A DNA stretch of 64,000 nt, taken from positions 717-64,716 of the forward strand of contig VGIW01000007.1 of assembly GCA_016867715.1 (NCBI GenBank), read 5' to 3'. Position numbers and translations under genes: made by a program. The notes beneath the pieces were generated by a model that was not told where the DNA came from, did no database searches, and was given only the letters and a program-made list of their open reading frames with translations. The DNA is from Candidatus Eiseniibacteriota bacterium (GTDB taxonomy: Bacteria; Orphanbacterota; Orphanbacteria; Orphanbacterales; Orphanbacteraceae). This document shows positions 1,748-49,915 of this stretch, one piece after another (position 1 is the stretch's first letter; every line of letters starts with the position of its first letter).

Positions 1748-4660
1748 GTGGTGCGACTTGCCACCGTTCTCGCGACCGCTCTTCTTGCGCTCTCCGTTCT
1801 TGCCGCGCAAGCGGGGACCATCCACCCGATGCTTGAGGCGCGAATGGATGTTCTCCGCGACGGAGAGCCGATCAGCGTTCTCGTTCACATGACCGAACAG
1901 GCGCCGATCGCCGAGCTGAACCAGCACCTCAAGACCGAGCGGTCGACGATGGCCGAGAGGCATCGGCGCGTGATCGAGGCGCTCAAGACCGCCGCCAAGA
2001 GCCAAGAGCCGCTCGCCGCGCAGCTCGAGTCCTCGAAGGGAATCGGCGGCGTGGTCGGCTACACGCCCTACTGGATCTCGAACCTCTTCGTCGTGTACGC
2101 CACGAAGGACGCCATCTACGAGATCGCTGCGCGAAGCGACGTGGACTTCGTGGAGCCGAACTTCACCGTGAGCCTGATCAAGCCGGTGGGGACTCCGGAG
2201 CTCGGCTCGAGCGAGGAAACGCCGGCTCTGCGCGGGATCGGCGTCCCCCCGGGGATCCGGGCCGTGCGCGCGGATCAAGTTTGGTACGAGCTCGGCGTCA
2301 ACGGAAGCGGGCGCCTCATCGGCAGCCTCGACACGGGCGTCGACGGCAACCACCCCGCCCTCGCGAGCCGCTGGCGCGGAACGCACGCGCGGTGGCAGGA
2401 GTGCTGGTTCGACGTGCTCGGCTCGGGCGGGACAACGTTCCCTACGGACACGCACAGCCACGGAACGCACACGACCGGGACGATGACCGGGATGGCGCCG
2501 GACGACACGATCGGGGTCGCGTGGGGCGCCGAGTGGATCGCCTGCAACGCGATCAACCAGGGGGTCGGGAGCGAGTTCGACAACGACATCATCAAGGCGT
2601 TCCAGTGGTTCGCCGACCCGGACAGCAATCCGAACACGATCGACGACGTTCCCGACGTCGTGCAGAACTCGTGGGGGATCAACGAGGGGTTCCCGGGCGG
2701 CTACACCGACTGCGATTCCCGCTGGTGGGCGGTGATCGACAACTGCGAAGCGGCGGGAGTGGCGACGATCTGGTCCGCCGGCAACGAGGGATCGGGCGCG
2801 CAGACCCTTCGCTCGCCCGCCGACCGCGCGACCACGCTGACCAACGCTTTCTCGGTCGGCGCGGTGAACGCGACGAACTACTCGTGGCCGTATCCGATCG
2901 CGGGCTTCTCGAGCCGCGGGCCGACCGGTTGCACCGTCCCCGCCGATCGCAAGATCAAGCCGGAGGTCGTGGCGCCCGGCGTCAGCGTCTACTCGTCGGT
3001 TCCGGGCGGCGGCTACCAGCAGAGCGGATGGGACGGGACCTCGATGTCGGGGCCGCACGTCGCGGGAACCATCGCGTTGATGCGCCAGGCGAACCCGAAC
3101 CTTGACGTCGATACGATGAAGATGATCCTTATGCAGACCGCAAGGGACGAGGGGACCGCGGGCGAGGACAACACGTACGGGCACGGGTTCATCGACGCGT
3201 ATGCGGCCGTTCTCGCCGCGGTGGAAGGATACGGGCGGATCGAGGGGGTCGTGACGAACGGAAGCTACGGCAACGGTCCGCTTCCGGGCGCCGAGGTCGT
3301 GCTCGATGGGACCGGCTACCGCTGGCTGACCGCGGCGAACGGCTCCTACGGCGGCTTCGCGGAGGAGGGAACCTACACGGCCCGGGCGTCCCTCGCGGGG
3401 TTCGCTCCGCTTGAGATCCTCGTCGAGATCGTTTCCAACGACACCACGGTTCAGAACTTCGCTCTGACCGACATCGCGGGCCCCGCGATCACCGAGGTCT
3501 CCGAGCCGTTCGCGACCACCGACGAAACGGGACCCTACGCGATCGGCGCGAACGTCGAAGACTACAGCACCGTGGCCTCGGCGAGCCTCTTCTATCGGGT
3601 GGCCGGCGGTTCGTGGGTCGAGGTTCCGATGACGCGCGGCCGCGCGCTCTACGAGGGATCGATTCCCGGCGCACCCGCGAACACCCAGATCGATTACTAC
3701 GTGTGGGCGGAGGACGGCATCGGGCTCTCTTCCGTGAACCCGTCCGGAGCGCCGGCGGCCTTCTACTCGCTCTTCATCACCGAAACGATGTACGCGCACA
3801 ACGCGGAAGATCCGGGCGACGCGAACTGGATGCTCGGAATGCCGGGGGACGCGGCGACCACCGGGATCTGGGTGCGCGTCGACCCGAACGGAACGTCGTA
3901 CAACAGCGTGCCGATGCAGCCCGAGGACGACCACACGCCGGCGCCGGGCGTGAAGTGCTTCGTCACAGGACAGGGGAGCGTGGGAGGCGGCGCGGGAGAT
4001 GCGGACGTCGACAACGGCTGCACGACCCTTCGGAGCCCGATCTTCGACCTCAGCGACGCGAGCATGGCGTTCGTGCGCTACTGGCGATGGTACGCCGAGG
4101 GAGGGAACTCCACCGACGACCAGTTCGCCGTGGACGTCTCCGACGACGGCGGCACGACGTGGGTCCCGCTCGAGCGCGTCCCGTCGATCGCGAACACGTG
4201 GACGGAGGTAGCGGCGAACGTTTCCGACTTCGTGGATCTCACGCATCAGGTGGTCTTCCGGTTCGTGGCGTGCGATCTCAACACGCAAGGGCTCACCGAG
4301 GCGGCGATCGACGACTTCGCCGTCGAGACCTTCCAGGCGATCGACACGGACGTCGCGGCCGCGGCGGACGGAATCCGCGCGACCGAGCTTTTCGCGAGCC
4401 GTCCGAACCCGTTCCGCGCGGGAGGCGAGGTCTCGATCCGGTTCCAGCTTCCCCGCGCCGAGAATGTCGAGGTGAAGATCTACGACCTCAGCGGGCGCGT
4501 CGTTACGACGCTCGCCGAGGGGCGTTTCGCCGCGGGCGAACACCGTCTCGCTTGGGACGGGCGCGACGCGGACGGCAAGGAAGTCGCTTCAGGTGTGTAC
4601 TTCTATCGCATGAAGAGCGACACGCGGACGGAGAGCCGCCGCCTGACGATCCTGCGGTAG
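1748..4660 (+). CDS. Secreted subtilisin-like serine protease (peptidase S8) with a C-terminal T9SS / FlgD-Ig-like sorting domain
   Basis: 970 aa. The N-terminal signal peptide is MVRLATVLATALLALSVLAAQA. Catalytic motifs are DTGVDGNHP (Asp), HGTHTTGTM (His) and GTSMSGPHVAGT (Ser). The C-terminus ...VKIYDLSGRVVTTLAEGRFAAGEHRLAWDGRDADGKEVASGVYFYRM matches a type-A T9SS CTD. GTG start with RBS AAAGGAG. Confidence 0.9.
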   Translation: MVRLATVLATALLALSVLAAQAGTIHPMLEARMDVLRDGEPISVLVHMTEQAPIAELNQHLKTERSTMAERHRRVIEALKTAAKSQEPLAAQLESSKGIGGVVGYTPYWISNLFVVYATKDAIYEIAARSDVDFVEPNFTVSLIKPVGTPELGSSEETPALRGIGVPPGIRAVRADQVWYELGVNGSGRLIGSLDTGVDGNHPALASRWRGTHARWQECWFDVLGSGGTTFPTDTHSHGTHTTGTMTGMAPDDTIGVAWGAEWIACNAINQGVGSEFDNDIIKAFQWFADPDSNPNTIDDVPDVVQNSWGINEGFPGGYTDCDSRWWAVIDNCEAAGVATIWSAGNEGSGAQTLRSPADRATTLTNAFSVGAVNATNYSWPYPIAGFSSRGPTGCTVPADRKIKPEVVAPGVSVYSSVPGGGYQQSGWDGTSMSGPHVAGTIALMRQANPNLDVDTMKMILMQTARDEGTAGEDNTYGHGFIDAYAAVLAAVEGYGRIEGVVTNGSYGNGPLPGAEVVLDGTGYRWLTAANGSYGGFAEEGTYTARASLAGFAPLEILVEIVSNDTTVQNFALTDIAGPAITEVSEPFATTDETGPYAIGANVEDYSTVASASLFYRVAGGSWVEVPMTRGRALYEGSIPGAPANTQIDYYVWAEDGIGLSSVNPSGAPAAFYSLFITETMYAHNAEDPGDANWMLGMPGDAATTGIWVRVDPNGTSYNSVPMQPEDDHTPAPGVKCFVTGQGSVGGGAGDADVDNGCTTLRSPIFDLSDASMAFVRYWRWYAEGGNSTDDQFAVDVSDDGGTTWVPLERVPSIANTWTEVAANVSDFVDLTHQVVFRFVACDLNTQGLTEAAIDDFAVETFQAIDTDVAAAADGIRATELFASRPNPFRAGGEVSIRFQLPRAENVEVKIYDLSGRVVTTLAEGRFAAGEHRLAWDGRDADGKEVASGVYFYRMKSDTRTESRRLTILR

Positions 4661-9617: not shown

Positions 9618-11866
9618 GCGTCGAAGAGCGCGTTCGCGACCGCGGCGGGTGTCGGGATCATCGTGTGCTCGCCGATCCCGCGCGCGCCGAGAGGCCCGTC
9701 CGCTTGCGGCGTCTCGACGAAATCCAGCCGGATCTCGCGGGGGAGGTCCTCAGTCGTCGGGATCTTGTAGTCCACGAGAGATGCGTTCGCGACGCGGCCG
9801 CTCGCCGGATCGACGACGAGTTCCTCCATCATGCCGGTGCCGAGCCCCTGCACGACGCCTCCGTAGAGCTGTCCCGCGATCATCGCGGGATGGATCACGC
9901 GCCCCACGTCGTAGCACGCGGCCACGCGGTCCACCGTGTATTCTCCCGTTTCCGGATCCACGGTCACATCCACCGCTTGCGCGCCGAACGTCCACTTCGC
10001 GACCGGCTTCGGGCTCTGGCTCGTCTCCGGATCCAGATGGATCAACCCTTCTGGTATGAATGATCCGGCGGCCGCGACCGGCCCTCCGATCGTGTGCCCG
10101 TCCGGGAACTGGTATCCCATCGCGAGCTTCGTGATCGGGATCGAGCGGCCGCTCTTCGCGTGGACGACGTTCTCCTCCTCGACTGCGAGCTCCGAGGCGG
10201 GGACGCCGAGCGTCTCAGCGGCGGTCGCGAAGAGCTGATCGCGAATCTTCTCCGCGGCGCGGAAGATCGCGTTCCCCGTCGCCCACGATTGCCTCGAGGC
10301 GACGGTCTGCCAATCGTACGGGAAGGAATCGGTGTCCGGGTTGCCGCGCACGCGAACCTTCTCGATCGGCATGTTCATCGCTTCGGCGGCGAACTGGGCC
10401 GCGACGGTCTTGAGGCCCTGTCCGATGTCGATCCCGGAGATCAGAACCTCGAGAGTTCCGTCCTCCGCGTACTTGAGAAGAACCGACGAGGCGGCGTCGT
10501 TCGGCATCGCCGGGGCCTTCACCGCGCAGGCGATCCCCTTCCCCCGGTTCGGAGAGCGGGGGCGGTTCTCGCGCATCCCGATCATCTCGGCGACCCGGCG
10601 GATGCACTCGTCCACGCGCCCGGCCTCTTCGCCGAGCACCTCGCCGGTGACGGTCGACTTGCCGGGTCCGAGGCAGTTCAAGAGGCGGAAATCCGCCGGA
10701 TCCATGCCGATCTCGCGGGCGACGATGTCCATCTGCTGCTCGAGAGCCCAATGAATCTCCTGCATCCCAAACCCGCGGTACGCGCTTCCGACCGGACGGT
10801 TCGTGTAGACGCCGATCGAATCGCCCTCTACGTTCGGGAACTCGTACGCGCCGCCGCAGGTGTACCCCGCGGCACGCACGATGTTCACGCCGTAGCCGCC
10901 GTAGGCTCCGCAATCCCAAAGATAGTGCATCTTTTGGGCTTGAACCTTTCCGCTCCGGTCGATCCCGGTCGTCAACGTGGCGGTGAGTCCTTGGCGGACG
11001 ACGGTCCCGTAGAACTCCTCCGGTCGGTCGATGAGAAGCCGCACCCAGCGGCCTCTCGCCTTCATCGCGAGCGCGACCGCGATCGGCTCGATGCCGATGC
11101 CGGCCTTCCCGCCGAACCCGCCGCCGACCGCGGGAACGCGGACGGAGATGTCCCCGTGCGGCATCGAGAAGCAGGCGGCGAGGAGGTGTCGGACCGTGAA
11201 GGGGCTCTGCGCCGACGTGTGGACTTCGATCCTTCCCGAGAGGTCCGCGCGGGCGACCGCGACGTGAGTCTCGAGCGCGACATGCTGCACCTGCGGCACC
11301 GCGAACGTGTTCTCGAACACACAGGCGCACTTCGCCAGCGCTCTCCGGTAGTCCCCTTTCCGCACCTTGAGATGGTTGCAGATGTTCGTGCCGCCTCGGG
11401 GACGGATCCAGGGGACGCACTCGTACGCGCCGAGGTCCGGGTGGACGAGCGGCGCGTCCGGTCCGATTCCGGCGACCGCGTCGAAGTTCGCGGGGAGCGG
11501 CTCGTAGTCGACCTCGACGAGAGCGGCCGCCTCGCGAGCGGCCTCGGGTGTCTCCGCCGCCACGGCGGCGATCGAGTCCCCTACATGACGCGCTCGGTCG
11601 ATCGCGAAAATCGTTTGATCCTTGAGATAAATCCCGGTGTGGAAGGGGAACTCGCGTCCCGTCGCGACGGCCCGCACGCCGGGAACGCGCTCCGCCTTCT
11701 CCGTCCGCACGCCGAGGACCCGCGCGTGCGCGTGCGGGGATCGGACCACGTGCGCGTGCAGCATGCGCGGGAACTTGAGGTCGGCCGTGTAGCGCGCGCT
11801 CCCGGTCACCTTCTCCAACCCGTCGACGCGCGGAACGTCCTTTCCGACCCAGCGGGGCGCGCTCAT
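9536..11866 (-). CDS. Xanthine dehydrogenase / aldehyde oxidase family molybdopterin-binding large subunit (CoxL/XdhB-like)
   Basis: 776 aa from MSAPRWVGKDVPRVDGLEKVTGSARYTADLKFPRMLHAHVVRSPHAHARVLGV... and GGGFGGK, which are typical of molybdenum hydroxylases. The upstream ORF-track extension is junk. The ATG overlaps the stop of the 2Fe-2S subunit (ATGA). Confidence 0.9.
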   Translation of the reverse strand: MSAPRWVGKDVPRVDGLEKVTGSARYTADLKFPRMLHAHVVRSPHAHARVLGVRTEKAERVPGVRAVATGREFPFHTGIYLKDQTIFAIDRARHVGDSIAAVAAETPEAAREAAALVEVDYEPLPANFDAVAGIGPDAPLVHPDLGAYECVPWIRPRGGTNICNHLKVRKGDYRRALAKCACVFENTFAVPQVQHVALETHVAVARADLSGRIEVHTSAQSPFTVRHLLAACFSMPHGDISVRVPAVGGGFGGKAGIGIEPIAVALAMKARGRWVRLLIDRPEEFYGTVVRQGLTATLTTGIDRSGKVQAQKMHYLWDCGAYGGYGVNIVRAAGYTCGGAYEFPNVEGDSIGVYTNRPVGSAYRGFGMQEIHWALEQQMDIVAREIGMDPADFRLLNCLGPGKSTVTGEVLGEEAGRVDECIRRVAEMIGMRENRPRSPNRGKGIACAVKAPAMPNDAASSVLLKYAEDGTLEVLISGIDIGQGLKTVAAQFAAEAMNMPIEKVRVRGNPDTDSFPYDWQTVASRQSWATGNAIFRAAEKIRDQLFATAAETLGVPASELAVEEENVVHAKSGRSIPITKLAMGYQFPDGHTIGGPVAAAGSFIPEGLIHLDPETSQSPKPVAKWTFGAQAVDVTVDPETGEYTVDRVAACYDVGRVIHPAMIAGQLYGGVVQGLGTGMMEELVVDPASGRVANASLVDYKIPTTEDLPREIRLDFVETPQADGPLGARGIGEHTMIPTPAAVANALFDACGIRILDLPITAEKVRAALKRKEKGG

Positions 11867-31547: not shown

Positions 31548-32870
31548 TCACCGCGGAAGAGAGATTCCGGACAGACGGCGGAAGAGGGAGACCGCGTAGC
31601 CGTCGGTCATGCCGGAGACGAAATCGGTCACGCGGAGGATCTTCTCGTAGTCGCTCGCCGATTCCGGGAAGAGCTCCGGCATCCAGGCGCGGATCCGTTC
31701 GTACTCGGGATGCGCGGGCCGGAGCGCGGCGCCGACGAGCCGATCGAGCAGCGCGCCGATCGCCTCGTAGCCGGCGATCTCGATCTCCAGCACTTCCTCG
31801 CACTGGTAGCACCGGCGCGCAACGAGAGCGGTGATCGCGTCGATCTTCTCTTTGGACGGGATCGCGTCCACCAAGGCTCGATCGAACGCGCCCTCCAGAA
31901 TCCCCGCCTCCTCGCGAAGGAAGAGATCCGCCGCCTCGCGAACCAAGACGTCGATCGAGCGGGCGCGGAGATAACCGACGACCGATTTCTCATCGTCCCG
32001 GTCCGCGGGAGATGGGCTCTCGCCTTCTCCCGCGATCGCCTCCAGAAGATCGCGCGCGTCATCGTAGCGGATCTTTCCGAGGCGAAACCCGTCCTCGAGA
32101 TCGAGGATCTGGTAGCAGATGTCGTCGGCCGCCTCGACGAGGAAGGCGAGAGGATGGCGGCACCACCACGCGCTCTTCTCCGAGAGGGGAAGGAGCCCGA
32201 GCGCGTCCGCCGCCGTCCGGAAGATCTCCTTCTCGCTTTGGAAGACGCCGAACTTCCGCGCGCTCCGGCGGGGCCCCGGGTCCTCCTCGAGAAGCGATTC
32301 CCGCGGATACTTGCAGAACGCGCCGAGGGCGGCGTAGGTAAGACGCAGGCCGCCCCGCCCCCTCGCCATCTGAAGACGCGTGAGAACGCGAAGTCCCTGC
32401 GCGTTCCCTTCGAAACGCTTGAAGTCTTCACTTTCCGCGTCCGCGAGGCGCGCGTTCCGGAACCGCTCCGGATCCCGGAACCACGTGCGGATCGCGTCCT
32501 CTCCCGAATGGCCGAAGGGAGGGTTCCCGATGTCGTGCGCCAAGCACGCGGCGGCGACGATGTCCCCGAAATCGCGGGGAGCCGCGATCGGGCCGAGGCC
32601 GTGCTTCTCGGCGAGGCGCGCCCCGACGAGGGTGCCGAGGCTTCTCCCCACGCAGCTCACCTCGAGGCTGTGCGTGAGGCGGGAGTGGACGTGGTCGTTC
32701 TCCGGCATCGGGAAGACCTGCGTTTTGTCGTGCAGCCTCCGGAACGCGGAAGAGAAGACGATGCGATCGTAATCCCTCTGGAACCCGCTTCGCGCGTCCC
32801 CGGACGGCGAGCGGCCTCCGCCGAGCCGTTCCTCGGCGAGAAGCCGTTCCCAACGCATCGCTTTCTTCAT
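31548..32870 (-). CDS. dgt: dGTP triphosphohydrolase-like HD-domain protein (Dgt family)
   Basis: 440 aa from [11 protein letters not shown]...[21 protein letters not shown]...RLTHSLEV...[14 protein letters not shown], which gives HD motifs and dGTPase family blocks. The ORF-track N-terminal extension is junk. Confidence 0.85.
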
Positions 32871-33029
32871 GAAGCTCTGCCCTCCCGCGAGCGCCCCGAG
32901 TCTATCGGTCTTCGGACCGCACGGCAAGGCGCCATTCGTCGGCAGCCGAGAGACGATCGCCGTCTCCGCTTCCGGAATGCGGTGCGAAGAGACCCCGCTT
33001 CCGCTATACTGCGCGGGCGGGAGCGACCG

Positions 33030-33833
33030 ATGAAGCAGGTGATGACGATCGCCGGATCCGATTCTGGCGCCGGCGCGGGGATCCAAGCGGATCTCAAGGC
33101 GTTCGCCGCGATGGGGGTTTACGGGACCACCGTGATCACCTCGGTCACGGCGCAAAACACGACCGGGGTCACGGATATCCACGATGTGCCGGTCTCGAAC
33201 ATCCGCGCGCAGATCCGCGCGCTCTTCGACGATTTCGACATCGCCGCCGTGAAGACCGGGATGCTCGCTTCCGCGGAGATCGTCGCGTGCGCCGCGGAGG
33301 AACTTGGGCGCGCGGGGGAGCGTCCGATCGTCGTCGATCCGGTGATGATCGCGGCGAGCCGGGCGGCGCTCATGCGGGAGGGAGCTTTCCCGGAGCTGAT
33401 CGCCCGGCTCCTTCCTCTCGCAACCGTGACGACGCCGAACCTGCACGAGGCGTCGGTGCTCGCGGACATGCGGGTCGAGACGAGCGAGGAGATCCGCGAG
33501 GCGGCGCGGCGGATCCGCGATCTCGGGAGCCGCTGGGTGCTGGTCAAGGGAGGGCACGGCGAGGGGAAGGAAGCCGTGGACGTCCTCTACGACGGCCGTA
33601 CGTTTCTCGAGTTCCGGGCGCCTCGTCTTGTGACCCGCTGTGTGCACGGAACGGGATGCACCTTCGCGTCGGCTCTCGCCGCGAGGCTCGCTCTCGGCGA
33701 GTCGGTGCCGCGCGCCGCGCGAAACGCGAAGGTCTTCATCACGGAAGCGATACGCCGCGGCATCGAGGTCGGACGAGGCAACGGCCCGACGAACCCGCTC
33801 TATCTGTTGCCGGAGTGGACGATTGATGCCTGA
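33030..33833 (+). CDS. thiD: Hydroxymethylpyrimidine / phosphomethylpyrimidine kinase ThiD
   Basis: 267 aa: [44 protein letters not shown]...VKTGML...VVDPVM...KGGH...[12 protein letters not shown]. Full set of ThiD/PdxK ribokinase-fold motifs. Confidence 0.9.
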
Positions 33834-33911
33834 ACGAACCGGCAGGTCGGAAGGGATTTCCGCGCGAGGGAGATCTTTCACGTATCAAGTCGATATCCCC
33901 GGGGGGCGCAC

Positions 33912-45306: not shown

Positions 45307-47208
45307 CTAGCCCCTGAGCGCGACGGTGAGCACCATGATCACGATGCCGATCAGCGCGCCGCCCGCGATCACTCCGGCGCAGATCGTCTCCTGGTTCGCC
45401 ACGATGTTCACGTTCATCCACGACTTCGGGTTCGTGAAGCGCCGCGCGAGCAGCCAAAAGATGAACGCCCCGAGAAACATCAGCCATGAGTCGGAGAAGC
45501 GAAGCACGAACGCGAGCCCCATCCCGACTCCCGAGATCGGCCAGCGGTTCTTCGTCGTGATCTTCAGCACCTCGAAGAGAATCCCGAGCGTCGCGCCGAT
45601 CACGACGGCGACGAGCGCGGTGACGTGCAGGATGCTGAAACCTCGCGTGAGCACCTCCGCGACCGCTTTCCAGATCATCGCCGCGATCATCGGGAGGCGG
45701 TCCGTGCCGAACACCTCGATGTTCCCGCGGAAGAGTGCGTAGTAGAAGATCGGCGTGCAGGCGAAGCCTCCCGCGATGATCCCGAGCACGTGGCCCATCG
45801 CCTGAAGACGCGGTTTTCCGCCGAGCATGTAGCCCGGCTTGATGTTCATGAGGAGGTTCGACGCATGCCCCGCGACCTCGCCGGTGATCCCGGCGGTGAT
45901 GAGGTTCGTCGGCGCGTTCCCCGGCGCGAGGCCCGCGTACGTGAGCTGCGTGAGCTTGCCGAGCGCGCCCGTCGGCGTGATCGCAGTGAGGCCGGTCGCG
46001 TTGGCCGCGATCAGCGTGAACACGAACACGAGCGGGATCGCGACGACCCCGAGCCACCAGGAGATTTGGAAGAACGCGAGCCCCATCAGAACGATCACCG
46101 CCCCGATGACGGGAATCCCGATCGCGAAGACCTTCATAGGGAGCTCGATGTTTCGGAGAAGATCGGCCTCCGCCTCGGCGCTCTTCTTTCGCCCGATGTT
46201 CTTGAACGCGGCGAGGAGCATCTGGGGCTTCGAGAAGAAAGAGAAAAGCGAGGCGGTCGTCATCATCGCCACGCCTCCCCAGAGAGACCACATCGTGATC
46301 CCGCGGAACCCGGTCTCCGTGATGATCCCCTTCTGGACGAGGATCGGGGCGAGGATGAAGTAGTTCAGCACCGCCCCGATGATGAGCGAAACGCCGGTGC
46401 GGATCCCCATCAGCCCGCCCGCGCCGATCATGACGATCTCTGTGTCCCAGCGAATCGTGAGGTCGCGGAGCGGGGTTCCGAGAAGCTTCGGGGTCGTGAA
46501 CGAGTAGACGAAGTCATCCCAATGCTGCCAGTAATTGTTCACCCATTCGCCGAAACGGCGCGCGCCGAGCGCGATCCAAAGCCCGCCGTCCCGGATGAAG
46601 TTGATCGCTCCGGAGATCCCCGCGAAGGCGAGAAGAAGCTTCTCCTGGGAGATCCCGTCGGTCGTTTCCTTGTGACTGTGCAAGGTGTCCATCACGACGC
46701 CGGCCGCGCGCCCTTCGGGAAACGGGAACTGCTCGTCGTTGATGAACCGCCGCTTGAGGGGGAAGGCGAAGAGCACGCCGAGTATCGCGAGCACGATCAT
46801 CCAAGTGAGGGAGTGCCACATCGGGATCACCCGTCCGGTCACCATCATGTAGGCGGGAAGGCTCGCGATGAGCGGCGCGGTCATGTATCCGGCCGCGGTG
46901 GCGATCGACTGCATGATGTTGTTCTCGAGAACGTGGAACTCCTTCTGCCCCGAGATGCGCGAGATCGCGCGATGCAGAGCGAAGGCGAGGATGACCGCGG
47001 TGATCCCGACGCCGAGCGTCCATCCGGTGCGCACTCCGACATAGAGGTTGGTCAGCGAGAGAACGCCGCCGAGCAGCATTCCGGTGATCACCGCGCGCAA
47101 CGTGAACTGCGGAACGTCCCCTTTATAGACCTCGCGGTGCCACCACTCGTCCTTCTGCTTCAGCGTCCATGTTCGGACTTGTTCTTCCGTCAGCTGCTTG
47201 ATCGCCAT
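45307..47208 (-). CDS. OPT-family oligopeptide transporter
   Basis: 633 aa with 15-16 predicted TM helices, from MAIKQLTEEQVRTW... through NYFILAPILV... and GYMLGGKPR, which fit the bacterial OPT/YGL114w family. Confidence 0.85.
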   Translation of the reverse strand: MAIKQLTEEQVRTWTLKQKDEWWHREVYKGDVPQFTLRAVITGMLLGGVLSLTNLYVGVRTGWTLGVGITAVILAFALHRAISRISGQKEFHVLENNIMQSIATAAGYMTAPLIASLPAYMMVTGRVIPMWHSLTWMIVLAILGVLFAFPLKRRFINDEQFPFPEGRAAGVVMDTLHSHKETTDGISQEKLLLAFAGISGAINFIRDGGLWIALGARRFGEWVNNYWQHWDDFVYSFTTPKLLGTPLRDLTIRWDTEIVMIGAGGLMGIRTGVSLIIGAVLNYFILAPILVQKGIITETGFRGITMWSLWGGVAMMTTASLFSFFSKPQMLLAAFKNIGRKKSAEAEADLLRNIELPMKVFAIGIPVIGAVIVLMGLAFFQISWWLGVVAIPLVFVFTLIAANATGLTAITPTGALGKLTQLTYAGLAPGNAPTNLITAGITGEVAGHASNLLMNIKPGYMLGGKPRLQAMGHVLGIIAGGFACTPIFYYALFRGNIEVFGTDRLPMIAAMIWKAVAEVLTRGFSILHVTALVAVVIGATLGILFEVLKITTKNRWPISGVGMGLAFVLRFSDSWLMFLGAFIFWLLARRFTNPKSWMNVNIVANQETICAGVIAGGALIGIVIMVLTVALRG

Positions 47209-47375
47209 GCGACTCCCCCGACGCGGCTCCGCGGAACCGCGCCATTCGGTCTCTCAAGCCGATTCACGCTCGATCGATCGCGAGCGCGGCTCCGGTCATT
47301 GTAACGGGAAGGCGTTGGAAGCGACAACGCGAATCCAGGCGGGTTCGGGCCTCTCGGACCGCTCGGCCCCGCGCG

Positions 47376-47404
47376 TTGACATCCTCGACCCCCAAAGGTA
47401 AGAT
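47376..47404 (+). promoter_or_regulatory. Near-consensus sigma-70 promoter (TTGACA, 17 nt spacer, TAAGAT) upstream of the TIR-domain gene
   Basis: A perfect -35 hexamer and a 4/6 -10 hexamer with an ideal 17-nt spacer, about 50 nt upstream of the ATG at 47458. GGAG lies 9 nt before the ATG. Confidence 0.45.
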
Positions 47405-47457
47405 GATGCGGCATAGTCACGGACCATGGGCCGGCCGACTCTTCCGGAGACCAGCAA

Positions 47458-48507
47458 ATGCGGATCTTCATCGGGTGGTCGGGCGATTTGAGCCACAGAG
47501 TCGCCGTCCTTGTTAAGGAATGGCTCTCAGACGTTCTTCAGTCCGACAGACCTTTCGTTTCCTCCGAGGACATCAAGAAAGGCGCACGGTGGTCCTCCGA
47601 ACTCGCCGCGGTTCTAAAGGAATGCTCGTTCGGCATCTTCTGCGTTGTTCCAAGCAACGCTCGGGCTCCTTGGATGAACTTCGAAGCAGGTGCGATCGTC
47701 GGGGCTATGCCGACCTCCCGCGTGAGCACGTTCCTTTTCGGGGTCGACCAGTCGGTCATTCAGGATACGCCCCTTTCTATGTTCCAATCGACGGTGTACG
47801 AGGAGACGGATCTTCTCCGGCTCGTCCGCTCGATCAATGATCTGCGAGTCGAGGACCGGATGGACGAAACGCGGCTAAAGAGGAACTTCGGCGCATTCTG
47901 GCCACGTCTCAAGTCCGAGCTCGATGAGCTGCTCCTCGATGCCGCACGGCAACCGTCCCGAGCGGATCCGGATCGACGATTCTCATCCGACGTCGAGAGG
48001 AGGCTAAGCGAGGCGACCGACGACTGGTGGAAGCATCACGACATCGCGATCGAAGATGCCCTCTTTCGCCACATCGCGGGCAACTTGGGGGACTTCGTGG
48101 TCGCCGACCGCCAGCTCGGCTTTCTTGCTGTAGTGGCCTCGTACAAAGGCGAGAAGATGAGGCAATTCACCGAGATCGCGAAAAACAACTCGGTCGTGAT
48201 CCAAGCGCTGGTTGAGCACGTGGCCTTCCACGAGCACAAGCGGCCGGTTTGGCGTGCGGCCGCAATGCTCGAACGCTGCGATCCGGAGATGCTCGGCAAG
48301 AGACTCGCGGCGGCTCTCGCCGGACAAGTGGAGGGGGATGAGCGGCGGCATCTGCTCTCCTCAGTGATCCCCGAGCGCCGAACCTACGCCTACATCGAGG
48401 CACACATCGAGAGCGAGATCATTGAGGCCGAGAGGGAGAAGTCCAGGAAGACGCTCGCCGATTTGCGGCGGCAGCTGGGCGAACCACCGCGAGCCCCGGT
48501 GGAGTGA
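47458..48507 (+). CDS. TIR-domain protein (DUF1863 / TIR_2-like N-terminal domain, about 130 aa) fused to an uncharacterised roughly 210-aa alpha-helical C-terminal domain
   Basis: N-terminal MRIFIGWSGDLSHRVAVLVKEWL...PFVSSEDIKKGARWSSELAAVLKECSFGIFCVVPSNARAPWMNFEAGAIVGAM matches the bacterial TIR-like pattern (xFISYSxxD ... S.EDI..G..W...I...I..S...I.V.S.....S.W...E.G). The C-terminal domain matches nothing I recognise. The gene looks notably lower in GC than its neighbours by eye. Confidence 0.75.
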   Translation: MRIFIGWSGDLSHRVAVLVKEWLSDVLQSDRPFVSSEDIKKGARWSSELAAVLKECSFGIFCVVPSNARAPWMNFEAGAIVGAMPTSRVSTFLFGVDQSVIQDTPLSMFQSTVYEETDLLRLVRSINDLRVEDRMDETRLKRNFGAFWPRLKSELDELLLDAARQPSRADPDRRFSSDVERRLSEATDDWWKHHDIAIEDALFRHIAGNLGDFVVADRQLGFLAVVASYKGEKMRQFTEIAKNNSVVIQALVEHVAFHEHKRPVWRAAAMLERCDPEMLGKRLAAALAGQVEGDERRHLLSSVIPERRTYAYIEAHIESEIIEAEREKSRKTLADLRRQLGEPPRAPVE

Positions 48508-48610
48508 TTCCGGGAGAGGCGGTATCCCAAGGCACGGCGACCCATGAACTCGAGGTGTGGAGCGCCGTGGAACTTCAACAAGAGCCACTTGCCGGATGGA
48601 GCGATTCGCG

Positions 48611-49915
48611 TCACGTGCAGGCCGGCGCGACGAGCCGCCGAAGCCAAAGGAAGAGAAGCACCGCGTGGGCGAGGAGAGCGGCGCCGACCGCTTGGTGCGC
48701 GGTCGTGATCGCGATGTCCGCCGCCGAAGGGGGCCCGGCTTCAGGCGAGAGGTTGACCGCGACGAGAGCGGTGAAACCGAGCACGATCTGGACGCCGAGA
48801 AGGGCGATGAAGAGGAGGCCGGTCCGGCGAAGGGCGGGCACGTCCGCATAGAGACCCCACGCACGCGCTCCGGAGACGGCGCCGAACACGAGAACGACGA
48901 CCGCAAGACCGATATGAAGATGAAGGCCTCCCGCGAAATGCCTCTCTACGGCGCCCGTGGCGATTTGGACAACGAGAAGAAGAAGAAGCGGGACGGAGAG
49001 GCTTCGATCCGCCGCCGCCGAGCGCTTCGCGATCTGCGCGGAGCTCTCGATCCACCGCGCTGAGAGAAAGACCGCGAGCGCGACCGTCATGCCGAAGAAG
49101 AGCTGCGCCACGACGCCGTGAACGAGCGCGAGAAGAAGACTCGGCGCCATCTCTTCCGGTGACGTGCTCAAAGTCGGCCTCCCCGTGACGCGCATGCCGC
49201 CGAGGAAGCCCTGCGCGATCATGAGAACGAGCGCCCCCGCGGCGAACCCCTTGAGCCACGGACGGCGGTCGTGTCGAAAGACGCGAATCGCGAGGACGAG
49301 CGTCGCGAGGCCGACCAGCGTTCCGAGAAGCCGGTGGGCATGCTCGTAGTAGATGTCTTCCGACATCTTCGCGAGCGGATAGAGAAACATATTATACCCA
49401 AAGGAATTTGGCCAGTCGACGACCGCGAGACCGGCGCGCGCGCCCGTGACGATCCCTCCGGCGACGAGAAGGAGAAACGTGGCGGCGACGAGGATGATGG
49501 CGAGGGCGCCGGTCCAGTTGCGCGGCGGCGGCCTCTCCCGTGCGCGGCGCGAAGCCCCGCCGATCCCGCCGAGACAAGCGCCGAGGAGAAGAGACCCGAC
49601 GATCCAGGCCGGGGCCGAGGGACCGAACCGGTTCGGCTCGGGCGACGCGATCACGCTCCCCAGGATGAGAAGGTTGATGAGCGAAGCAATGAGCCCGGTC
49701 TTCGCTCCGGCCTTTGCGCCGTCCCCCGTGAGGCGAGCCGCAAGGCGTCCGCCGGCGACGAGAAGAAGAAGGAGGACCGCAAGCGTGAGGGTGCCTGGCG
49801 CTTCGACCCCTGGGAATCGACAAACGTACGCGGCGGTCCACATCGCGACCGCCGTTCCGAAGCCGAGCGCCAGGGAAGAACCGGGACCGGGAATCTTCTC
49901 CGGATCGACGTTCAT
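48611..49915 (-). CDS. ctaA: Heme A synthase (CtaA / COX15 family)
   Basis: 434 aa polytopic membrane protein with paired His-containing helices (HRLLGTLVG, HQAVGAALLAH), as in COX15/CtaA. It lies next to ctaB and the cox genes. Confidence 0.8.
   Translation of the reverse strand: MNVDPEKIPGPGSSLALGFGTAVAMWTAAYVCRFPGVEAPGTLTLAVLLLLLVAGGRLAARLTGDGAKAGAKTGLIASLINLLILGSVIASPEPNRFGPSAPAWIVGSLLLGACLGGIGGASRRARERPPPRNWTGALAIILVAATFLLLVAGGIVTGARAGLAVVDWPNSFGYNMFLYPLAKMSEDIYYEHAHRLLGTLVGLATLVLAIRVFRHDRRPWLKGFAAGALVLMIAQGFLGGMRVTGRPTLSTSPEEMAPSLLLALVHGVVAQLFFGMTVALAVFLSARWIESSAQIAKRSAAADRSLSVPLLLLLVVQIATGAVERHFAGGLHLHIGLAVVVLVFGAVSGARAWGLYADVPALRRTGLLFIALLGVQIVLGFTALVAVNLSPEAGPPSAADIAITTAHQAVGAALLAHAVLLFLWLRRLVAPACT

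Follow-up and report, generated by a model that had tools for sequence, protein, structure and literature searches.

A TIR protein with a predicted HEAT-like C-terminal domain, inserted between housekeeping genes of a Candidatus Eisenbacteria bacterium: a candidate single-gene immune protein

Defence proteins that combine an NADase and HEAT repeats in a single chain are known from Vulcan and DSR2. Vulcan is composed of a NIR/DUF4062 NADase with C-terminal HEAT repeats and has been proposed to sense phage proteins and respond by NAD+ depletion (bioRxiv 10.64898/2026.09.04.749371), while DSR2 joins a SIR2 NADase to a HEAT-repeat sensor and depletes NAD+ upon binding of phage tail tube protein (PMC11263360). 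A TIR protein is part of the three-gene 2TM-1TM-TIR system of the P2-like phage AC1, which defends E. coli against lambda, LF82_P8, and P2 (Rousset et al. 2022, PMC9122126). Annotation tools represent this system by the PADLOC models 2TM-TIR, 1TM-TIR, and TIR-TM and by DefenseFinder Rst_2TM_1TM_TIR, and scanning the P2_AC1 proteins fixed the identity of the PADLOC TIR-TM model as the TIR gene of the system. Here, we analyse a gene in a 64 kb stretch of DNA from the candidate phylum Eisenbacteria (the whole stretch is referred to as the window) that may encode a self-contained sensor-effector immune protein, i.e., a putative NADase with its own sensor like Vulcan or DSR2; we give this reading a probability of about one half. 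The locus has the following features:

47209 to 48610, no strand: accessory segment from the start codon of OPT (oligopeptide transporter) to the stop codon of CtaA (heme A synthase), 1,402 bp; the junction of a related lineage has 125 bp without the TIR gene
47376 to 47404, plus strand: sigma-70-type promoter, with -35 TTGACA at 47376-47381, a 17-nt spacer, and -10 TAAGAT at 47399-47404
47446 to 47449, plus strand: Shine-Dalgarno-like GGAG, 8 nt 5' of the ATG, read from the sequence
47458 to 48507, plus strand: coding sequence of the TIR plus HEAT-like protein, 349 aa, stop codon included, from the ORF list
47458 to 47952, plus strand: TIR head, aa 1-165 (~165 aa), ending in a family-specific "F..WWP.L" helix, from PADLOC PDLC03016 and Pfam TIR_2
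47683 to 47685, plus strand: codon GAA of E76, the putative catalytic Glu, invariant in 46 family members
47968 to 48477, plus strand: predicted HEAT/ARM-like helical domain, aa ~171-340, ten helices, signature R-P-x-W-R-A-A-A-M-L-E (aa 262-272)

The 349-aa ORF contains all three motifs quoted in a first-pass annotation of this DNA and has the same sequence as a MAG protein at NCBI that carries the annotation [quoted passage not shown] and is assigned PF13676 in precomputed Pfam data; neither an NCBIfam scan of the protein nor an Rfam scan of positions 47000-48800 gave a match. The promoter had been described as near-consensus and atypical, with a TTGACA -35 at ideal spacing, and this description holds, as 10 of the 12 hexamer positions agree with the consensus and TTGACA-N16-18-TAnnnT has its single match in the window at this site (TTGACA itself is found twice compared to 6.8+-2.4 expected occurrences). 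At the orthologous locus L001, the promoter reads TTGACA-18-TAGAAT, with both hexamers and the following GATGCNGCA kept relative to the window, and GAGGA lies at the equivalent Shine-Dalgarno position. The dN/dS of the window gene versus its orthologue is 0.19 (dS ~1.3), with 0.12 for the TIR part and 0.26 for the C-terminal domain compared to 0.09 for the flanking OPT gene, whose dS is about half that of the TIR gene; both domains are under purifying selection, and the gene is functional but faster-evolving than its OPT flank.

Profile and motif comparisons identify the N-terminus of the protein as a genuine but divergent TIR domain with a catalytic-type Glu. The PADLOC TIR-TM model (PDLC03016) matches aa 1-170 with E=3.9e-61 over profile positions 1-169 of 293, and over 158 aa the head shares 41.5% identity with the TIR protein of P2_AC1 (E=4e-33). 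Pfam TIR_2 (PF13676) matches with E=6.1e-6 and 27.2 bits, marginally (0.8 bit) below the curated gathering cut-off of 28, a shortfall that counts against an immune reading of the gene. Besides TIR_2, the Pfam scan at E<=1 returned only TIR (PF01582, E=0.007) and Vps4_C. The domain had been announced as TIR-like of the DUF1863/TIR_2 kind, and the TIR_2 half of this assignment stands, but PF08937 (DUF1863/ThsB_TIR) gave no match on the protein at E<=1, nor did the PADLOC models for ThsB, SAVED, STING, APAZ, and STAND proteins. The family profile also matches the plant TIR 3jrn (E=0.007), and in the alignment E76 coincides with the W-x-x-x-E Glu of SSWCLDE (AtTIR 3jrn), STWCLEE (Roq1 7jlv), and NWTEYE (7uxr, a solved structure of a bacterial TIR domain protein), a position established as catalytic in TIR enzymes. 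This Glu, whose absence had been named beforehand as refuting the proposal, is present, and the family-invariant residues (G42, W72, E76, A77, G78, A79, F109, Q110, and W148) are all intact.

The C-terminal part had been described as all-helical and impossible to place in any family. By sequence it remains so, with no Pfam match for the C-terminal ~185 aa and no sequence relative of the domain in the PDB, but the AlphaFold model of the domain alone (pLDDT 92.8) adopts a HEAT/ARM-like solenoid. Its motif R-x-x-W-R-A-A-A-M-L-E resembles the HEAT-like repeat signature V-R-x-A-A-A-x-A-L-G (PBS-lyase/HEAT-like), a lead to a possible relationship; unlike PBS-lyase/HEAT-like proteins such as CpcE/F and alphaRep designs, the domain matches no Pfam HEAT model at E<=0.1, and a Foldseek search with the model gave nothing significant. 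A phmmer search seeded with the window domain yields matches up to E=1.2e-20, and a profile search adds 15 members, with W, G, R, W-R-A, A, and L as invariant columns. We regard the domain as a rare, previously unannotated HEAT/ARM-like family without a Pfam model, its fold being a high-confidence prediction. The exact architecture of a TIR-TM-type head with this domain is known from only two sequences, and this scarcity speaks against an immune reading; in other proteins, the domain follows either a classical TIR_2 head or one of NDT-like type. The genes beside these proteins are mostly of TIR, SIR2, SLOG, or SLATT type and encode ThsB_TIR+SLATT, TIR_2+TPR-S, TIR-WD40, SIR2_2+DUF4145, and TIR_2+SLOG, including multi-gene sets of the form [NDT-like-Cdom]-[ThsB_TIR]-[SLATT] and [TIR_2]-[SLOG]-[?]-[TIR_2-Cdom], and one further member adjoins an SMC/AAA_21-like ATPase (faint Pfam matches only). 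No C-terminal domain of this family was found in a search of viral contigs. A 324-aa unannotated gene upstream of P0052 was considered as a further member and rejected, as its product is not a protein of this family.

The TIR-TM head is far more widespread, with at least 594 genomic loci and 138 viral contigs (IMG/VR). Family members are mostly stand-alone, with no recurrent neighbour gene among 80 genomic loci, and 2TM/1TM partner genes accompany them at 2 of 80 viral loci and at none of the genomic ones. The tails behind the conserved head form 45 clusters among 122 members, and this coupling of a conserved head to highly variable tails has the appearance of an effector with an exchangeable sensor. 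P2_AC1, L012, and a Serratia plasmid protein match the TIR-TM profile from position 1 to 280-286. Members occur as accessory cargo at the P2 hotspot and at the lambdoid moron site between Q and holin, and a 4.7 kb mobilizable plasmid carries one as its only cargo. The sole relative that has been validated, the P2_AC1 TIR protein, acts jointly with two TM proteins, and their absence from our locus weighs against an immune reading of the latter. Taking both families together, we tentatively suggest, at somewhat less than even odds for the two proposals jointly, that the TIR-TM family generally consists of single-gene defences whose sensor tails can be exchanged, with the three-gene system of P2 as a special case, and that the "RPxWRAAAMLE" domain is an undescribed dedicated immune sensor/adaptor module carried by at least three NAD/nucleotide-cleaving heads (TIR-TM-type TIR, TIR_2, and NDT-like). 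The latter would then define a new defence family, with some members working alone, as the window protein would, and others in uncharacterised multi-gene sets.

As the first-pass annotation stated, the TIR gene lies between OPT and CtaA and is an orphan without the usual partners, since ThsA, CD-NTase, pAgo, or other canonical partner genes are found neither within +-8 kb nor elsewhere in the window. The 64 kb surroundings are purely housekeeping and not a defence island, another observation that speaks against an immune reading. In the related lineage L100, the CtaA stop (2766) and the OPT start (2892) are 125 bp apart, tblastn finds no TIR gene, and similarity to the window restarts only once the coding sequences of CtaA and OPT are reached. 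Because this junction is empty, the comparison identifies the TIR gene as a ~1.3 kb single-gene accessory insertion between two housekeeping genes; a repeat search for insertion scars found no notable direct or inverted flanking repeats, only short ones at chance level. Acquisition of a self-contained module had indeed been proposed, but as a recent event, and recent horizontal transfer is rejected by an orthologue in another Eisenbacteria MAG that is 66% identical (aa), occupies the same place next to an OPT of 92% identity, has the same promoter, and shows purifying selection. Retention at a single chromosomal site in two diverged lineages is compatible with a domesticated non-immune role and in this respect counts against an immune one. 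The expected low-GC islet is real but modest: The gene has 60.5% GC, and its flanks reach 63.2% (OPT) and 67.0% (CtaA) rather than the supposed ~70%, with a window mean of 65.5%. None of the 41 listed ORFs of >=200 aa, some of which are overlapping shadow frames, has a lower value, and the gene falls into the lowest 1.4% of sliding windows, but the GC3 of 0.75 is only ~1.2 sd lower than the mean of 0.81.

Defence is our best guess for the role of this gene because relatives of both its domains occur in phages, plasmids, and conflict islands. As a sensor-effector immune protein, it would use the TIR domain with E76 to cleave NAD+ or to make an ADP-ribose-derived product, and the HEAT-like solenoid would serve as a protein-binding module that keeps the enzyme inactive until a trigger arrives. 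This trigger would most plausibly be a phage protein whose binding leads to TIR-TIR assembly and catalysis. Because no effector gene is co-encoded, the most likely output would be abortive infection as in Vulcan and DSR2, in which loss of NAD+ halts the growth of the infected cell. Autoinhibition and oligomerisation are put forward by analogy, as the confident model covers the C-terminal domain only and single-sequence AlphaFold of the full protein reached a pLDDT of 46.9; this, too, counts against an immune reading.

Alternatively, the protein could be a Thoeris-like signal generator acting in trans, i.e., the HEAT-like domain would sense infection, the TIR domain would make an NAD-derived messenger, and the effector would be encoded elsewhere in the genome. 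The operons that combine relatives of the C-terminal domain with ThsB_TIR+SLATT or TIR_2+SLOG have the architecture of signalling systems and would fit this scenario, but a PADLOC and Pfam scan of 36 ORFs revealed no SLOG, Macro, SIR2, or SLATT gene in the 64 kb window, and a jackhmmer search of every window ORF of >=40 aa, with the P2_AC1 proteins as queries, found no 2TM/1TM partner either. In Thoeris, CBASS, and Pycsar, the genes of signal generator and receptor are normally adjacent, and most of the 80 genomic and 80 viral loci of the head family lack a recurrent neighbour. On balance, we consider this scenario unlikely.

To a similar degree, we doubt that the protein has been domesticated for a non-immune task such as NAD(P)/nucleotide processing or scaffolding, possibly in co-regulation with OPT. 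It is true that the TIR gene sits stably beside the divergently transcribed OPT gene in two lineages, sharing a promoter region of ~250-340 bp, and that both the housekeeping context and the purifying selection on both domains would be expected for such a role. However, the lineage L100 has OPT without the TIR gene, OPT is a neighbour at none of 80 family loci, the TIR gene has diverged much faster than OPT (66% versus 92% aa identity), and it is in phages, plasmids, and conflict operons that relatives of either domain are concentrated. Functional coupling to OPT in particular is largely rejected by the first two of these observations. It is very improbable that the gene is an inactive orphan left over from what was once a multi-gene system, as the missing 2TM and 1TM partners and the replaced C-terminal half of the TIR-TM profile might suggest, given that selection (dN/dS 0.12-0.26 over dS ~1.3) argues strongly against it, no family-invariant residue, E76 included, has been lost, promoter and Shine-Dalgarno sequence are conserved, the C-terminal domain model folds confidently, and a stand-alone gene is the normal state of the head family.

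The sensor-effector immune protein that we favour is most likely a variant of the known NADase plus HEAT design and not a new class or mechanism, because Vulcan and DSR2 are already known as single-protein defences of this type. If active, it would be a TIR-headed addition to the emerging one-protein "NADase plus HEAT-repeat sensor" defences and, with 349 aa, a compact candidate that folds well and comes from a candidate phylum that has received little study. The family of its C-terminal domain, which in conflict operons has been joined repeatedly to TIR and NDT-like heads, offers a search handle for new systems. PADLOC and DefenseFinder know the TIR-TM family only within 2TM-1TM-TIR, whereas the family is overwhelmingly stand-alone and tail-variable, and annotation pipelines therefore miss most of its members.

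Similar to Thoeris ThsB, TIR-STING, TIR-SAVED, SPARTA TIR-APAZ, and TIR-NLR/Avs proteins, the window protein has a TIR domain with a catalytic-type Glu and relatives in bacterial conflict contexts. Unlike Thoeris, it has no ThsA (SIR2/SLOG or Macro-TM) within +-8 kb or among the 36 window ORFs, and it differs from the TIR effectors of CBASS, Pycsar, and SPARTA in that SAVED, STING, cNMP-binding, and APAZ domains, a cyclase, and pAgo gave no PADLOC or Pfam match on the protein or its neighbours. With 2TM-1TM-TIR it shares the homologous TIR head, motifs including W-x-x-F-E-A-G-A, and the nature of accessory or mobile cargo, but a HEAT-like domain takes the place of the P2_AC1-type tail (profile positions 170-293), so the TIR-TM match is not full-length, and both TM partner genes are missing from the window. 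Like DSR2, it would combine an NADase-type head and a HEAT-type sensor in one chain, whereas DSR2 has a SIR2 head, extra domains, and forms a tetramer of ~1000 aa chains, and no sequence relationship between the two was detected. Compared to Vulcan, the head is TIR (TIR_2/TIR-TM) with no DUF4062 match at E<=1, and the helical domain, which is short (~170 aa), is likened to the HEAT region of Vulcan (WP_050009967.1) on its architecture. What the window protein and Vulcan have in common, besides the proposed sensing of a phage protein followed by NAD+ depletion, is a single chain without partner genes in which an N-terminal TIR-like, NADase-type head with the catalytic Glu is followed by C-terminal HEAT-type helices.

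The reading frame described in the first-pass annotation lies on the forward strand between the genes for an OPT transporter and CtaA (heme A synthase). Its protein is identical to the NCBI record [quoted passage not shown] and is found on 17 metagenomic contigs, with alike surroundings in all.

47376-47404, forward strand: promoter, TTGACA-17-TAAGAT
8 nt upstream of the TIR gene's ATG, forward strand: GGAG (SD)
47458-48507, forward strand: TIR gene, 349 aa, with all three motifs quoted at first pass

The perfect TTGACA -35 is indeed atypical for these surroundings, and the promoter is the sole match to TTGACA-N16-18-TAnnnT in the 64 kb window. TTGACA itself is under-represented there, with 2 occurrences on both strands (one of them this promoter) compared to 6.8±2.4 in dinucleotide-preserving shuffles. 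The proposed lower-GC islet is a genuine dip but weaker than claimed: the gene has 60.5% GC against a window mean of 65.5% (sd 2.4%, gene-sized windows), within the bottom 1.4% of sliding windows and the lowest among 41 listed ORFs of at least 200 aa (including some overlapping shadow frames), but the flanks fall short of the supposed ~70% (OPT 63.2%, CtaA 67.0%). GC3 is 0.75 compared to 0.81±0.05, like that of the nearby sulfatase, Ada, CtaA, and CyoE genes.

The head of the protein is a divergent yet bona fide TIR domain with a catalytic-type Glu, placing the protein in the TIR superfamily and in the head family of PADLOC model PDLC03016, "TIR-TM". This model matches with E=3.9e-61 over residues 1-170 only, corresponding to profile positions 1-169 of 293, while Pfam TIR_2 (E=6.1e-6; 27.2 bits at a curated cut-off of 28) and Pfam TIR (E=0.007) match more weakly and an NCBIfam scan gave no match. 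Across 46 aligned family members, nine positions do not vary: G42, W72, E76, A77, G78, A79, F109, Q110, and W148. The family profile matches solved TIR structures weakly (AtTIR 3jrn with E=0.007, then Roq1, bacterial TIR 7uxr, and AbTIR), and W72 and E76 align with the W and E of their W-x-x-x-E motif, whose Glu is the catalytic residue in enzymatic TIRs. With E76 at this position, the catalytic Glu is not missing and the TIR assignment stands; the more specific DUF1863 label is dropped, since PF08937 had no match in the Pfam scan.

Within 8 kb on either side, precomputed Pfam annotations comprise housekeeping functions only (acyl-CoA ligase, aminotransferase, methyltransferase, Ada, OPT, CtaA, CyoE, sulfatase, and cytochrome oxidase subunits). 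As anticipated, none of the usual partner genes is found there or among the 36 large window ORFs, which gave no match to SIR2, SLOG, Macro, SLATT, CD-NTase, SAVED, or Argonaute. PADLOC matches among these ORFs are limited to a dGTPase-like ORF, a "mad2"-like protein (E=1.7e-23), and a subtilase. The first is a 777-aa mechanical ORF (31551-33881, reverse strand; residues 350-771 match PADLOC dGTPase with E=6.1e-70) that is ~14 kb away from the TIR gene, without linkage to it, and could be either a Dgt-type dGTP triphosphohydrolase with a housekeeping role or a dGTPase that serves in defence. The 970-aa subtilase (1748-4660, forward strand; Peptidase_S8 with a C-terminal FlgD Ig-like domain; PADLOC "subtilase" E=2e-19) is probably a secreted protease.

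The TIR gene stands alone as an accessory gene; its strong promoter is conserved, and it is under purifying selection. At the orthologous locus of a second Eisenbacteria MAG (L001), the TIR gene is likewise divergent from OPT, and the -35 and -10 hexamers, GATGCNGCA after them, and the SD are all kept; the downstream neighbour is a methyltransferase that differs from the window's neighbour and is not orthologous to the window methyltransferase. A metagenomic contig of a related lineage (L100; OPT 88% identical) branches outside these two, its OPT N-terminus being 87% identical to either compared to 92% between them. Here the CtaA stop and OPT start are separated by 125 bp, compared to 1,402 bp in the window, and no TIR sequence was found at this junction, which points to the TIR gene as an accessory single-gene insertion (or to a deletion in L100). 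The insertion ends carry no repeats, and Rfam has no family match at the TIR locus. The insertion is older than the divergence of the two lineages that carry the TIR gene. The recent horizontal acquisition suggested earlier is not supported, given an L001 orthologue with 66% identity beside an OPT that is 92% identical over its first 228 residues. The reading as an accessory module that has a promoter of its own is supported.

Divergence between the window and L001
TIR head: dN/dS 0.12, dS 1.40
C-domain: dN/dS 0.26, dS 1.28
Whole TIR gene (window 47458-48507, L001 1024-2073): dN/dS 0.19, dS 1.34
OPT, N-terminal 228 aa (window 46525-47208, L001 3-686): dN/dS 0.087, dS 0.61

The gene is functional and under purifying selection, and it changes more quickly than its flank. 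At synonymous sites it has diverged about twice as far (~1.3) as the neighbouring OPT (~0.6), either through weaker codon bias, perhaps, or through allelic exchange at this site. The L001 orthologue is slightly GC-poor (63.8% vs 65.7% for its own contig).

Among 5.8 billion protein clusters, the single full-length relative is P0002 from another Eisenbacteria MAG (66% identity), and ~48 more proteins match over the first ~165 residues only. The meaning of "TIR-TM" was traced via family members in annotated records. In P2-like phage AC1, the TIR gene lies 3' of two small ORFs, themselves directly after the replication gene, that match PADLOC "2TM-TIR" (E=7e-58) and "1TM-TIR" (E=3e-75), and its product matches "TIR-TM" over the entire profile (E=3e-118). 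These are the genes of the three-gene AC1 system cloned by Rousset et al., which protected E. coli C against lambda, LF82_P8, and P2 (PMC9122126). Despite the "TM" in the model name, hydrophobic segments are absent from all family proteins examined.

The family is overwhelmingly stand-alone. It occupies at least 594 loci across many phyla in one-genome-per-species bacterial and archaeal genomes as well as 138 IMG/VR viral contigs, and a member in a Methanothrix (archaeal) MAG (L088, 10001-10813) shows that it crosses domains of life. Iterative searches with the AC1 2TM and 1TM proteins found these partners in 2 of 80 viral loci, both P2-like, and in neither the window nor the genomic loci. The commonest neighbour cluster occurs at 5 of 80 genomic loci in scattered positions, and no Pfam or PADLOC family recurs among the 127 immediate neighbours, which include methyltransferases, recombinases, and transposases alongside tRNA synthetases and Hsp70. 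A mobilizable Serratia plasmid of 4.7 kb has the TIR gene as its sole cargo. In lambdoid phage mEp390, the TIR-family gene gp47 (L093, 4001-4819) stands by itself on the opposite strand, flanked by the genes for the Q antiterminator and the holin, and bidirectional terminators are annotated after it; this is a classic lambdoid moron site.

Family tails are highly variable, with 45 BLAST clusters of C-terminal halves among 122 members. The largest class is AC1-like ("ILEElLELxRxQ..PExLLPPxY", 45 members), and the tail of our protein is restricted to the two Eisenbacteria proteins. Some tails resemble, by eye, sigma-70 region 4 or LuxR-type HTH domains ("LTPREEKILRMxYGI"; L075, L082, and L086, genes starting at 10001, 137, and 1738), P0045 carries an FGE-sulfatase/SUMF1 domain, and Nostoc and Pyrinomonadaceae members share a distinct alpha/beta tail (cluster of 9).

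Residues ~165-349 have no match in Pfam and no sequence relative in the PDB, and are predicted with high confidence to form a HEAT-like domain. This C-domain is rare: in an exhaustive phmmer search of 1.84 billion representatives, no more than 10 proteins passed E≤1e-3, a further 11 came from a profile search, and no relative was found on viral contigs. Every relative carries an R-P/V-x-W-R-A-A-A-M-L-E motif, and the domain sits behind three types of head: the TIR-TM-family TIR (P0001, our protein, and P0002), a classical TIR_2 domain (P0052, 58 bits), and a ~140-aa head with "ADLTGxNPNVFYELGxAH" (weak Pfam nucleoside 2-deoxyribosyltransferase match; PADLOC CBASS "Effector/TIR" E=2e-9). NADase-type or related conflict genes occur in 5 of 8 genomic contexts examined.

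Genomic contexts of C-domain genes
L096 424-2796 and L097 382-2754 (Desulfobacteraceae MAG): NDT-like head with C-domain (316 aa), then immediately 3' ThsB_TIR (157 aa) and SLATT (291 aa)
L095: TIR_2, ThsB_TIR, TPR-S protein
L182: 1131-aa TIR-WD40 protein
P0070 contig: SIR2_2 and DUF4145
L183 673-5310: operon of TIR_2 (392 aa), SLOG LD_cluster2 (293 aa), an unannotated protein (324 aa; rejected as a C-domain relative, unrelated by comparison), and TIR_2 with C-domain (323 aa)
L185: SMC/AAA_21-like ATPase, faint Pfam matches only
Other 2 of 8: protein kinases, NOV_C protein, recombinase

The compact L096/L097 operon has the appearance of a Thoeris-like system, as yet uncharacterised, whose effector would be of the pore type. 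Both the TIR-TM and C-domain families have links to phages, plasmids, or conflict islands.

We give a probability of about 0.5 to a one-chain sensor-effector acting by abortive infection via TIR NAD+ cleavage, a mechanism proposed by analogy. The HEAT-like C-domain would bind a trigger and thereby release TIR-mediated NAD+ cleavage, with NAD+ depletion and abortive infection as the likely outcome because no effector gene is present. Trans-acting Thoeris-like signalling, as might operate in the ThsB_TIR-SLATT operon, is unlikely for a gene with neither SLATT nor SIR2 in its window. A domesticated non-immune role would suit the housekeeping surroundings and sits less easily with the conflict associations of both families; it seems just as doubtful, and explanations beyond those named here together carry a similarly small weight. 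An inactive remnant is very improbable given the purifying selection.

The combination of TIR and HEAT-like domains, seen in two sequences only, is new, as is the unannotated C-domain family, though specialists would not find it surprising for a TIR to be joined to a repeat sensor; useful leads are the C-domain family and the mostly single-gene, tail-variable "TIR-TM" family. The protein is no member of Thoeris, CBASS, Pycsar, SPARTA, or DSR2, nor of 2TM-1TM-TIR (tests for the profile tail and for both partner genes were negative) or Vulcan (its head is not DUF4062). Its mode of action is most probably like that of Vulcan or DSR2, both experimentally characterised. DSR2 joins SIR2 to HEAT repeats that bind phage tail tube protein (PMC11263360), and Vulcan joins NIR/DUF4062 to HEAT repeats, is activated by lambda gene lambdap79, and depletes NAD+ dependent on its catalytic Glu (bioRxiv 10.64898/2026.09.04.749371). 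The logic is the same as that proposed here, with other NADase heads.
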